From IMG/VR virus record IMGVR_UViG_3300045118_000414: a stretch of 64,000 nt of DNA, one strand, 5' to 3'. The DNA is from a virus. Lineage: Duplodnaviria > Heunggongvirae > Uroviricota > Caudoviricetes. Shown here one piece after another: positions 18,408 to 24,488 of this stretch. A program made the position numbers and the translations under genes. The notes below the pieces were generated by a model. The model had not been told where the DNA came from. It saw only the letters and a program-made list of their open reading frames with translations, and did no database searches. How positions within the stretch are numbered: position 1 is the first letter of the stretch; every line of letters starts with the position of its first letter.

Positions 18408-21400
18408 ATGCCATTATCCATACCAGTACATGCTGAATCACGTGGTAGCGCAGAAAACAAACTGAATCCGGCGCGTCAAAATGAATTCATTCAAAATGCT
18501 TTACAACAATCTATAAAAAGACAATTTCCTGTTATCGGCACACATCATACCTTGGAACTAATCGGATCGCCAAAGATAAAAGATGTGCTGGACGACCGGG
18601 ATTTACCAGCCCAAAAAGAGACTAAGTTACTTGGAAAAACCTGGCAAATACCTGTTTATGCTTCGTTCCGTTTGCGAGATAATCAAACAAACATGATTAT
18701 AGATGAAATAAAAGATATGAAGATAGCAAATATTCCAAAACTTACCGACAGATTTTCAATGATCATAGGTGGTAACGAATATACTACTATAAATCAATTT
18801 CGTCTAAAGCCCGGAGTTTATACACGACAAAAAGAAAATGGTGAAATGGAATCGTTCTTTAATCTTGCTGTCGGTTATAATTTTAAAATGGAATTGGATC
18901 CGGCTGAAGGTGTATTTTATCTTTATGTAGCAAAACAACGTTTTCATCTTTATACATTATTAAATGCCTTAGGTACTACGCAGCAAGAAATGATAAAGGC
19001 GTGGGGGCAAGAGCTGTTTGACAAAAACAAGGCGGCGGGAATAAATGAAGCAGAAAAAGAAATACCGTTATTATATGAGAAATTAAGACGGCAACGATTA
19101 GGATATAACGAAGCGTTAGAAAATATACGTACATATTTTGACGATACTAGAATGGATCCGGAGGTAACAAAAATAACATTAGGTGATTCGTATGATCGAG
19201 TATCACCGACCGCCCTACTGGCCAGCGCAACTAAATTATTAAAAGTTATGAAAGGTGAGACTCCTGAAGATGAGCGTGATTCATTGTTGTTTAAACAATT
19301 ATACACGGTAGACGAACAATTAGAAGAATACTTTTCTAAAACAACAAAGGATGTAGTCAAAAATTTGCGTTATCGCACAGATAATAAAAAGAACATACGA
19401 GAAATTATTTCTACTGATACTTATACGGAACCAATACGAAAATTTTTCACAACAGGTGACTTGAGTAATCCTTCTCCTCAAACTAATCCAGTGGAGATGG
19501 CCTCGGAATGGAGAAAGACAACCGTAACCGGTACTGGTGCCATACAATCCGAACATTCAATAACTTTTAAAACACGTGATGTACATCCAACGCATCTAGG
19601 ATATTTAGATCCATTGCATACTCCCGAAGGTCATAAAGTCGGCGTTACTTTAAGTCTAGGATTAGGAGTAAGAAAACGCGGTAAAGATTTAACTACTACT
19701 ATCATAATGCCAAATGGCACACAGAAAGAAGTTACTCCAATCGAGTTTTATGACATGAAAATTGGATATCCGGATCAACATGAAAAAGGGAGAGCTCAGC
19801 ACGATCAAATAAAAATAATGTATCGCGGGCAAGTCGATGAAGTGCCAAAATCGGAAGTAGATGCTTACTTGCTTGATCCAACATCTATGTTTGGCTGGAC
19901 AACAAATTTAATACCATTTCTGGGCACAAATTCAGGAAACCGCGCTGCAGTTGCGGCAAAAATGGCAAGTCAGGCGGTACCATTAAAAAATGCAGAAAGC
20001 CCATTAGTAAAAGTACAGGCTCCGAGCGGGCGTACAATGGACGAAATACTTGGTATGATCGCCACTACAAGAATCAGGGATGATGTGGGCAAAGGCGTAG
20101 TTACTGCTGTAGATAAAGATTACATTACTATAAAAACAGATGCAGGTGAAAAACATAAAATTGGTTTATATAATGATTTTCCGCTTAACCAAGATAGTTT
20201 CTTACAATCGACCCCGCTAGTAAAGCCAGGAGATCGTATAAAACCTTTTGATGTACTGGCAAAAAATAATTTTACAGATGCATCTGGTAATTATGCTTAT
20301 GGCATCAATGCTACTGTGGCTTATATGCCATGGTATGGATATAATTTTGAAGACGGTATAGTTGTGACCGAATCATTAGCCAATAAATTAACATCAACAG
20401 TAATATTAAAGAAAAGTCTGCAAACAAGCGCGACCGGTATATTAGATAAACAAAAATTTGTTTCGTATTTTCCAGAAAAAATTAACAACATAAACCTTGC
20501 AAAACTTGATGAAACTGGTGTAATAAAAGAGGGTGAACGCGTTCTCCCAGGCGAGGTACTGATAGCATATCTTTCTCGCGTGGAATTGACGGATACCGAA
20601 AAAATATTAAAACAGATGCACAAAGTAATATCTAATCCATATCGTGATCGTTCTTTAATATGGGATGGAGAACATGAAGGCATTATAAAATATGTTCGTA
20701 GAATAGGTAATTCTATTATAGTGTGGATTTATGAAGAACAACCTTTAGTCGTTGGTGACAAATTAGCTGCACGTTATGGAGACAAAGGTATAGTAACAAA
20801 AATTATATCAGATGACGAAGCTCCATATACAAAAGATGGCACACGTATAGATATTTTATTCAACCCTCATGGTGTAGTGGGTCGTATGAATATGGGTCAG
20901 ATGCTTGAGACCGCTGCAGGAAAAATAGCTTATAAAACTGGGAAACCATATATTGTAAAAAACTTCTCTGGCGAAGATTACTTAAAGAATATTATAGGGG
21001 AACTGAAAAATAATAAGATCCCCGCCGAAGAAATTTTATACACCAAAGATGGCAAACCGATGACAAAGGCCCCTGTATTCTGGGGTGTAAAATATTATCT
21101 CAAACTATTACACATAGTAGAGCATAAATTTAAGAGTCGTGATATCCCTGGAACATATGATGCAAACGAACAACCTGCAAAGGGAGAAGAGGGTGGGCAA
21201 TCAATAGATCCTCTACAAACATACGCATTACTGGCGCACGGTGCCAGACAGAATTTATTTGAATTTGCGGCGGTGAAATCTCAGAAAAACGATGAGTACT
21301 GGCGTAATCTTCAATTAGGCTTTCCTCCACCAAGGCCGCAAAAAAACTTTGTATTCGATAAAATGTTATCATATATGAAGGCTGCCGGTATTAATGTATC

Positions 21401-24400: not shown

Positions 24401-24488
24401 TTTAAAAGGCACGGATCCAATGCCGGCTTATTTACAAGGTACCTCTTTCGGACAAGAACTAGATCCTGAAAAGAAGCAATTTTATTAA
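18408..24488 (+). CDS. single-polypeptide multisubunit-type RNA polymerase: fused minimal beta (N-terminal ~920 aa) and beta-prime (C-terminal)
   Basis: beta: [24 protein letters not shown] ~ [46 protein letters not shown] ~ [24 protein letters not shown]; beta-prime: [19 protein letters not shown]...[16 protein letters not shown] ~ NRAPTLHRLGIQAFEP...NADFDGDQMAVHVP. Confidence 0.9.
   Translation: [2026 protein letters not shown]

Follow-up and report, generated by a model that had tools for sequence, protein, structure and literature searches.

A 64,000-nucleotide stretch of the tailed-phage record IMGVR_UViG_3300045118_000414 in IMG/VR, referred to here as the window and corresponding to bases 6437-70436 of the 214.5-kb contig k141_197835 of ENA ERZ27250193, was found to encode a fused β–β′ RNA polymerase (RNAP). 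The gene (18408-24488, plus strand) is one uninterrupted open reading frame (ORF) of 2026 amino acids (aa), predicted from its sequence to be a bacterial-type two-barrel RNA polymerase whose whole catalytic core lies in one polypeptide, with a mass of ~230 kDa from a single polymerase gene. The prediction of a functional single-chain polymerase core from a large portal-linked phage lineage is robust. Taken as a whole, the observations are best explained by a single-chain phage transcriptase for GGTATAAG promoters that would work with a phage σ factor, be made late and be delivered by the virion, and we hold this composite explanation to have an even chance of being right.

Pfam β domains occupied the ORF's N-terminal portion (Rpb2_2, weak; Rpb2_3; Rpb2_6, E=4.6e-61), and the β′ domains Rpb1_1 to Rpb1_5 followed downstream in the same ORF. 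The best matches in PDB were B. subtilis β′ (E=2e-104) and cyanobacterial β (E=3e-82). An initial annotation, made from the sequence without database searches, had described one ORF with β followed by β′ and clear bacterial-type motifs; both of the motifs that it quoted are present, and Pfam mapping, which it had put forward as a check, gave Rpb2 and then Rpb1 domains in one ORF.

Anatomy and conservation of the fused polymerase

We aligned 69 intein-free relatives with concatenated E. coli RpoB and RpoC. The end of E. coli β, SLGINIELEDE, aligned at residue ~1005/1006, and the β′ N-terminus started directly after it. The β module (aa 1 to ~1005; 18408-21422, plus strand) reaches the natural β C-terminus, the β′ module (aa ~1006-2026; 21423-24485, plus strand) follows, and the junction between them (aa ~995-1008; 21390-21431, plus strand) has no linker. 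The boundary is thus later than the ~920 aa initially given for the β module, and the description of the two modules as minimal was overstated. The parts absent relative to E. coli are βSI1, βSI2, β1126-1191, β′SI3, a few short loops and the N-terminal Zn-ribbon of β′; the β module aligns nearly end-to-end with a 1100-aa cyanobacterial β, and the whole protein is ~15% shorter than B. subtilis β+β′. No insertion of 8 aa or more specific to this protein was present in the alignment with E. coli and the 69 relatives.

The flap tip, lid, clamp helices, DFDGD loop, bridge helix (GARKG), trigger loop and second Zn site were retained. The catalytic Mg-binding loop DFDGD (aa 1377-1381; 22536-22550, plus strand) lies inside NMDFDGD (aa 1375-1381). 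In E. coli numbering, β residues K1065, K1073, D814, R678 and R1106 and β′ residues D460, D462, D464, R425 and H936 were invariant in 69/69 relatives, H936 being the equivalent of the catalytic histidine in the aligned trigger loop, and the position of β E813 was E in 68 relatives and D in one. The catalytic motifs, whose loss on closer alignment would have told against the initial annotation, are therefore intact. The 32-residue segment with the β′ Zn-ribbon cysteines C70/C72/C85/C88 was deleted in the phage protein and in all 69 relatives, and the second β′ Zn site (C814/888/895/898) was kept. Two residues of the rifampicin pocket, at established positions of rifampicin resistance, were replaced (D516→P, H526→E), and the enzyme is probably insensitive to rifampicin, as judged from these substituted residues.

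An AlphaFold2 model of residues 880-1420, built with a 51-sequence alignment, reached a pLDDT of 88.7 and a pTM of 0.85 and folded the junction into an ordered β-hairpin (pLDDT 89-96). Foldseek searches with this model returned bacterial β′ chains as the top matches, with query-normalised TM-scores of 0.64-0.68 and rmsd of 3-4 Å.

The fusion is conserved throughout a large family. The identical 2026-aa protein was found on several independent assemblies, in contigs of up to 215 kb, and more than 110 protein clusters of ~2000-2100 aa with the same fusion, down to 31% identity, were among the matches listed. In IMG/VR, a profile scan recovered at least 525 relatives, of which the best 80 loci were examined; 72 of these 80, on contigs of up to 205 kb and with GC contents of 28-61%, carried a single ORF of at least 1900 aa. 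Inteins (LAGLIDADG/Hom_end/Intein_splicing) were frequent, with one to three per protein in P0010, P0025, P0031, P0033, P0050-P0060, P0100 and others. They were inserted most commonly at the DFDGD loop (~19) and also at the trigger loop TFHTGG (~11), the β TPEG loop (~6) and the β lysine motif (~4), catalytic hot spots at which inteins are expected for an enzyme under selection.

These data bear on the concern that the single ORF is an artefact or a relic, whether an assembly or frameshift join, contamination with bacterial rpoBC or an inactive pseudo-enzyme. Some matching phage-database records are indeed contaminating bacterial rpoBC, and a few relatives have in-frame stops in the polymerase. 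Against this, the identical protein recurs across independent assemblies, the same junction occurs in more than 100 diverged clusters and in 72/80 IMG/VR loci, no cellular rpoBC exceeds ~33% identity, the neighbours are phage genes, the catalytic residues are invariant and the junction is well folded in the AlphaFold2 model, and we regard such an origin as hardly credible. An assembly or frameshift artefact joining two genes, which the initial annotation had named as its possible undoing, is ruled out by the family-wide fusion. A recent capture of host rpoBC was likewise ruled out: in species-representative genomes, identity to cellular rpoBC was 25-33%, with no single phylum prominent.

In L023, L055, L066 and L091 (GC 34-38%), the polymerase frame runs through in-frame stops, for example 4051-5862 and then 5863-8955 in L023, which could be stop-codon recoding or sequencing error. 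Among the species-representative genomes, the family occurred on only about seven contigs of metagenome-assembled genomes (MAGs), from unrelated taxa. These members (L129-L134, L136) lie on contigs of 32-204 kb in MAGs named Bacteroidales, Leptolyngbyaceae, Desulfurellales, Thermoguttaceae and Aenigmatarchaeota. They are probably mis-binned phage contigs and unreliable as host evidence, and the species-genome scan, with matches spread across unrelated taxa, gave no host assignment. A near-identity DNA search with the 15-28 kb part of the window against phage genomes returned zero matches.

Two promoter classes around the polymerase gene

The top intergenic 8-mer of the window was GGTATAAG, with 13 exact copies, 13/13 on the minus strand, opposite to the polymerase gene. 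A search for GGTATAAGAAT at no more than one mismatch found 13 sites where 2.25 were expected, and none of 100 shuffles reached 13. The typical site follows a hairpin and T-run and lies 17-60 nt before a ribosome-binding site (RBS) and ATG. The distinct motif reported by the initial annotation is therefore real, but it does not precede most other genes, as had been stated; it marks about 13 transcription-unit starts among about 90 genes.

One of the sites, the promoter-like GGTATAAGAAT at 18342-18352, faces away from the polymerase, drives a divergent 139-aa gene (17882-18301) and is a conserved island in relatives. The same back-to-back arrangement of motif and polymerase was seen in about 30/80 IMG/VR loci. 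The GGTATAAG-driven divergent neighbour was a variable set of small genes, which ruled it out as a conserved partner subunit. The remaining sites, all on the minus strand, are spread over the window. Near its start, GGTATAAGAAT at 4261-4271 is followed by AGGAGG and ATG, and GGTATAAGATT at 4394-4404 lies upstream of gene 3589-4305; closer to the polymerase, GGTATAAGATT at 17675-17685 follows a hairpin and T-run upstream of a MoxR operon. GGTATAAGAAT at 35974-35984 stands upstream of tRNA-Ala (35656-35729) and the Ro60 region. GGTATAAGAAC was found at 57008-57018, after a terminator hairpin and 44 nt upstream of gene 56560-56964, and at 63696-63706, upstream of the SLT gene 63136-63678. Gene 57876-59093 is preceded by two sites, GGTATAAGATT at 59117-59127 (after a hairpin and T-run, 24 nt upstream) and GGTATAAGAAT at 59214-59224. 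GGTATAAGAAT at 57821-57831, after a terminator hairpin, and GGTATAAGATT at 57752-57762 share an ORF-free stretch, and GGTATAAG at 62597-62607 faces an ORF-free stretch of 470 nt. The last site, GGTATAAG at 31524-31534, abuts the ATG of the 122-aa gene 31153-31521 and is back-to-back with TTGATT-17-TATATT of the plus-strand gene 31574-32197.

Comparisons across the family showed the same strand bias. GGTATAAG occurred 15 times on the strand opposite the polymerase and 0 times on the polymerase strand in L011, L012, L017, L018 and L019 together, and 43 versus 2 times in 933 kb from the 80 IMG/VR phages; 200 same-composition permutations of the latter set averaged about 11 and 11, and none was so asymmetric. 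In Salmonella phage Arash, one of the closest cultured relatives (53% GC), 30 sites were opposite the polymerase strand and one was on it; the 13-kb locus of D69 that was examined had zero. The extended consensus consists of an A-tract about 17-20 nt upstream, GGTATAAG, A/T and then A (AA), and TG at +13/+14, the position of a start site should TATAAG serve as the −10 element. Selection favoured the GG prefix and final G of GGTATAAG over TATAAT-like and TGn variants, ruling out an ordinary σ70 −10 or extended −10 element. All these indicated that the GGTATAAG promoter class is co-inherited with the fused polymerase family on the non-structural strand, which is a robust observation, and co-inheritance across phages of 28-61% GC and Arash argues for phage-encoded machinery that reads the motif.

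The motif and the polymerase might still be unpaired, with GGTATAAG read by host core RNAP with a phage σ, or acting as a 5′-UTR or regulator element, while the polymerase serves another class such as the late genes. TATAAG does resemble a −10 element, relatives do encode σ70-family factors, and an element acting at the RNA level would give the same strand bias. We nevertheless consider such unpairing improbable. The 8-mer is conserved with the polymerase family over GC contents of 28-61%, and so presumably in unrelated hosts, which is most easily explained by a recognition machinery carried entirely by the phage; further, the sites have the layout of promoters, following terminators, with an upstream A-tract, TG at start-site distance and an RBS at promoter-like distance.

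Several sites have features of their own. The first ATG of gene 31153-31521 comes 6 nt after the end of the GGTATAAG core (31519-31534, minus strand), and the mRNA of this gene would be leaderless if transcribed from +13/+14 of the motif. Three or four GGTATAAG promoters point into stretches of 330-640 nt that have no ORF (57425-57831, 62131-62607 and 34400-35984, minus strand), and the stretch with tRNA-Ala adjoins the upstream side of the Ro60 gene. These stretches are possible sources of non-coding RNAs. The one of 391 nt that follows two of the motif sites folded no better than its shuffles (z = −1.55), and tRNA-Ala was the sole Rfam match at gathering and at E<=0.5.

The polymerase gene itself is preceded by a −35/−10-type promoter, TTGATT-17-TATAAT (18360-18388, plus strand), which scores 10/12 against the consensus, and by the RBS AGGAG (18397-18401, plus strand), 7 nt before the ATG and kept in L011 and L012. 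The islands conserved upstream of the polymerase among the window, L011 and L012 coincide exactly with the motif, both hexamers and the RBS. Equivalent promoters are TTGACT-17-TACAAT in L017, one also in L018, and a perfect 12/12 TTGACA-17-TATAAT in L025; those of L022, L092 and L098 score 10-11/12, and 0/345 control windows reached 10/12. The σ70-like promoter noted at the outset is thus borne out by its score and by its conserved footprint, and it is limited to the subclade of the window. Other polymerase-strand genes share the type, with TTGATT-17-TATATT before 31574 and TGTGTTATAAT before the portal gene. The assignment of the polymerase gene to the −35/−10 class, and not to the GGTATAAG class, is robust. 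A bidirectional intrinsic terminator (A-run/hairpin/T-run; 24500-24526), 12 nt past the stop codon, closes a monocistronic polymerase unit.

A similar geometry was seen about 2-9 kb past the end of the window, where nine co-oriented genes on the polymerase strand (L127, 847-7677) have no Pfam or PHROG function. The first gene of this block is preceded by CTTATACC-8 nt-TTGAAT, back-to-back as at the polymerase gene, and distant relatives encode homologues of its 576-aa member downstream of the polymerase.

Gene context, specificity factors and timing of expression

The 3′ part of a portal protein gene, which starts before the window, occupies 1-1473 on the plus strand (phrog_16240, E=5.5e-12). 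Its homologues are the portals that precede the polymerase in family loci, Arash (gp204) and D69. A co-oriented portal gene was located upstream of the polymerase in 37 family loci (34-37), and a co-oriented gene for a protein of ~400-565 aa, weakly like the Arash virion protein gp238 and a baseplate-hub PHROG, was located downstream in 41. Judged by these sequences, the polymerase gene ancestrally had the portal gene as its upstream neighbour. The other polymerase-strand genes of the phage have homologues in the same module elsewhere in the family; PHROG comparisons of 16 polymerase-strand proteins from the phage and distant relatives returned near nothing beyond the portal and one weak baseplate match.

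In the subclade of the window, blocks of opposite-strand genes lie between portal and polymerase, including homing-endonuclease-like genes, a reverse transcriptase, MoxR and others. The homing-endonuclease-like genes in the block that parts portal from polymerase fit an insertion of mobile elements. Genes of this kind (PHROG 'D5-like regulator/HNH endonuclease') are at 7852-8691, 12446-13423 and 13740-14684 on the minus strand and at 60422-60952. A 338-aa reverse transcriptase (RVT_1) is encoded at 10127-11143 (minus strand), with counterparts in L017 (6997-7968), L018 (4489-5475) and L090 (1940-2869), a few kb upstream of the polymerase. A MoxR-type AAA+ ATPase (15968-17113) with an upstream 425-aa partner and a 211-aa Zn-hook-like protein (together 14694-17745, minus strand) and a ClpB-like AAA+ protein (25879-28059, minus strand) flank the polymerase, and both the MoxR group and the ClpB-like gene are conserved beside it in L011, L012, L018, L021, L022 and L025.

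Pfam families of σ, α and ω gave zero matches among all genes of the 64-kb window, in agreement with the initial remark that none was obvious nearby. No σ signal was found in eight polymerase-adjacent proteins with Pfam (E<=1) or PHROGs, and neither the window nor the neighbourhoods of six relatives yielded a σ gene. Arash has two σ70-family proteins, gp10 and gp196, the former conserved in D69. In local tblastn searches of the fetched loci, the Arash σ factors matched only L083, a fully fused relative in which a gene with a canonical σ region 2 follows the polymerase gene by 2.3 kb. IMG/VR scans with two σ profiles (A3, A4) recovered only Arash/D69-like or L083-like contigs, with zero overlap with the list of fused-polymerase contigs. 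In the polymerase, the σ-docking clamp helices and the flap tip are retained, and most of the 69 relatives have I/V/L/T in place of the E. coli σ-contact R275.

We infer from these data that the fused enzyme reads GGTATAAG, depends on σ, has no need of α or ω and is packaged. The covalent β–β′ tether would replace the assembly role of the α dimer, and the enzyme would be the phage's own transcriptase for A-tract…GGTATAAG(A/T)A…TG promoters, a class that would drive the opposite-strand non-structural genes, namely replication, RNA repair, tRNA and many small variable genes. Promoter recognition probably needs a phage-encoded specificity factor, most likely of the σ70 family, because the clamp helices and flap tip are retained and Arash, D69 and L083 encode σ. 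The enzyme would be expressed with the virion genes, be packaged, enter the cell along with the DNA and begin transcription without recourse to host RNAP; the virion RNAPs of N4 and phiKZ are the model for delivery, and a single chain would spare reassembly after ejection.

The timing was weighed against a T7-like scheme, close to the host-transcribed early polymerase of the initial annotation, in which the host σ70 holoenzyme transcribes the polymerase gene at once and the enzyme, unpackaged, then reads GGTATAAG as a middle class. Its two ingredients, a host-type promoter and a phage-specific motif, were both found. The near-consensus −35/−10 promoter is conserved in the window, L011, L012, L017, L018, L022, L025, L092 and L098, the polymerase gene is monocistronic with its own terminator and is flanked on both sides by opposite-strand non-structural genes, and good σ70-like promoters stand before very few other genes of the window. 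However, a host-type promoter does not discriminate timing, because the late gene for the N4 virion RNAP is host-transcribed, and the portal and other same-strand genes also have host-type elements, so that the class is not early-specific. GGTATAAG is absent from the strand with the portal, lysis and other conserved module genes; a polymerase that reads only GGTATAAG would thus not transcribe the late genes, unlike T7 RNAP. In addition, GGTATAAG drives small hypervariable genes that resemble early genes, and the family synteny with portal and baseplate-like gene, the Arash late promoter and the virion proteomics point the other way. Early timing is therefore one of two readings, and the T7-like scheme, a serious possibility, seems to us rather less probable than an even call.

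We prefer a late-made, virion-delivered enzyme. The portal–polymerase–baseplate synteny, the late promoter and proteomics of Arash and the absence of the motif from the structural genes all fit such an enzyme. The plus strand of Arash carries the structural genes, both polymerase genes and the two σ70-family genes with (C)TAAAATA ahead. This late element lies ~25-35 nt upstream of the portal gene, gp216 (β′C), gp185, gp188, gp212, gp218, gp241 and the endolysin gene, and the polymerase genes carry it as the portal gene does. It resembles the T4 late promoter TATAAATA. Neither (C)TAAAATA nor the GGTATAAG class was found mentioned in the Arash paper, from whose text the word 'promoter' is absent (PMC10585845). 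Mass spectrometry of Arash virions detected Gp206 as the most-detected protein, as well as Gp216 and the σ factor Gp10 (PMC10585845).

Several points weigh against a virion-delivered, σ-dependent transcriptase for GGTATAAG. A phage σ on host core RNAP could read GGTATAAG instead. No σ gene was found in the 64 kb plus about 15 kb of a phage genome of ~215 kb, and the inferred independence from α and ω draws on their absence within partial genome data; the enzyme may use host α and ω. In the subclade, the polymerase gene stands apart from the structural genes and is monocistronic, and its near-consensus −35/−10 promoter, 12/12 in L025, looks like a strong early promoter read by the host. The Arash polymerase is only 28-30% identical and is split within β′, and the Arash virion preparation also held many obviously non-structural enzymes, which makes the proteomics suggestive (PMC10585845).

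The rest of the window contained further genes of interest. A dense RNA-repair and RNA-quality-control cluster (32609-49144, minus strand) comprises Ro60/TROVE-vWA (32609-34399), the tRNA-Ala described above, PNKP (37312-38172), an RlaP nucleotidyltransferase (38160-38876), NUDIX (39065-39484), a T4 Rnl1-type ligase (39881-40954), a PP2C phosphatase (43126-43833), RNase H (45781-46119), ClpP (47446-48060) and an Rnl2-type ligase (48053-49144). A phage Ro60 suggests a Y-RNA-like partner, and none was found via Rfam. A protein with WGR and PARP domains (54304-55542) is encoded near an NAD synthase (52646-53494; together 52646-55542, minus strand), and the pair may be a module for ADP-ribosylation and NAD salvage. 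The Alt and Mod enzymes of T4 ADP-ribosylate host RNAP, and the module of the window could bear on shut-off of the host polymerase. An 826-aa protein (4840-7320, minus strand) matched MVP_shoulder and faintly Vault_3, which is unusual for a phage, and had no PHROG match.

Significance and comparison with known systems

In its fullest form, the proposal is a large, globally distributed lineage with a self-sufficient single-chain RNAP without α or ω, packaged and ejected with a co-packaged minimal σ and starting at GGTATAAG…TG, which we regard as possible but doubtful. If true, the β–β′ fusion would have adapted a 'multisubunit' polymerase to come through the tail intact on ejection, and the lineage would represent a third independent route to virion-delivered transcription beside N4 and phiKZ, with the smallest natural cellular-type RNAP core. 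The reassembly of multisubunit virion RNAPs after ejection has been posed as an open question (Sokolova et al. 2020); here the subunits are covalently joined. An enzyme active alone, or with a single σ-like factor, would rank as the simplest cellular-type RNA polymerase in nature, without α, ω and Zn-ribbon, of use for structural and evolutionary study of two-barrel core assembly and, with its 8-bp promoter, as an orthogonal transcription module. The lineage-wide promoter and the enzyme, possibly with a σ, form a directly testable pair.

No description of a fully fused bacterial-type phage polymerase was found in the searchable literature, an incomplete library, and the fully fused, Zn-ribbon-less enzyme is a variant not previously described there, from a widespread and uncharacterised clade. 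Phage databases match it at only 28-30% identity, the closest cultured relatives being Arash (Gp206 and Gp216) and the Vibrio phages D69, D181 and D148. Arash Gp206 covers residues 20-1449 of the phage protein in one piece and shares the fusion at the β→β′ junction, and in the Arash/D69 type a homologous portal gene adjoins the polymerase gene, as in the family. In that type, however, β′ is split, with the C-terminal ~600 aa on a separate gene, whereas the protein of the window is unsplit; the Arash polymerase genes have the T4-late-like (C)TAAAATA element in place of a −35/−10 promoter; and Arash has the σ genes gp10 and gp196, while none was found in the window. Enzymes of the Arash/D69 type have not been studied biochemically. 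In D181 and D148, a homing endonuclease lies within the split polymerase region.

The mReC polymerases (Weinheimer & Aylward 2020, PMC7481178) also come from uncultured tailed phages, some of more than 200 kb, have β and β′ alignable to cellular subunits, with modules of similar size (β ~1000 aa, β′ ~900-1000 aa), and share some source metagenomes with the present family. In that survey, the criterion was separate β and β′ of at least 800 aa each, matching COG0085 and COG0086, and β and β′ were separate in all table entries, none of which was ~2000 aa, in contrast to the fused 2026 aa found here (PMC7481178). Many mReC contigs had two polymerase sets, and the fused clade, abundant in IMG/VR with at least 525 loci, was not among the table entries (PMC7481178). 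The mReC screen demanded NADxDGD (PMC7481178), where the present protein has NMDFDGD; NADxDGD occurred in only about 48/120 homologues among the matches listed.

Cellular rpoB–rpoC fusions of Helicobacteraceae and Wolbachia join the β C-terminus to the β′ N-terminus as here, according to PMC7483510, which cites Lane & Darst 2010 and Zakharova et al. 1999. Those proteins are cellular and of normal size, whereas the phage protein is shorter, has no Zn-ribbon and is at most ~33% identical to cellular enzymes. The fused enzymes of Helicobacteraceae and Wolbachia work with α2, ω and host σ factors.

Among phage two-barrel enzymes, the phiKZ/AR9-type RNAPs also do without α or ω, and one set is packaged, ejected and transcribes early genes from a phage-specific AT-rich promoter (PMC7598289, PMC7824862). 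They consist of 4-5 highly diverged polypeptides and use no σ70-family factor, whereas the enzyme described here is one bacterial-like chain. The crAss-like virion RNAP and SPβ YonO do hold both catalytic barrels in one polypeptide, but are so diverged that the COG0085/COG0086 profiles miss them (PMC7481178). They have lost most β/β′ accessory domains, whereas the present enzyme keeps the flap, clamp helices, lid, bridge helix and trigger loop. Unlike them, it matches standard β/β′ profiles (Pfam to 1e-61, PDB to 1e-104), and its distinction from both the crAss-like and the split phiKZ types, drawn already in the initial annotation, holds for a single ORF with such strong matches. The crAss-like enzyme is virion-delivered. 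The N4 virion RNAP is a giant single polypeptide that is packaged, ejected and transcribes early genes, and the gene that encodes it is late and transcribed by host σ70 RNAP; with its unrelated T7-like single-subunit fold, it is a functional analogy only for the fused polymerase described here.

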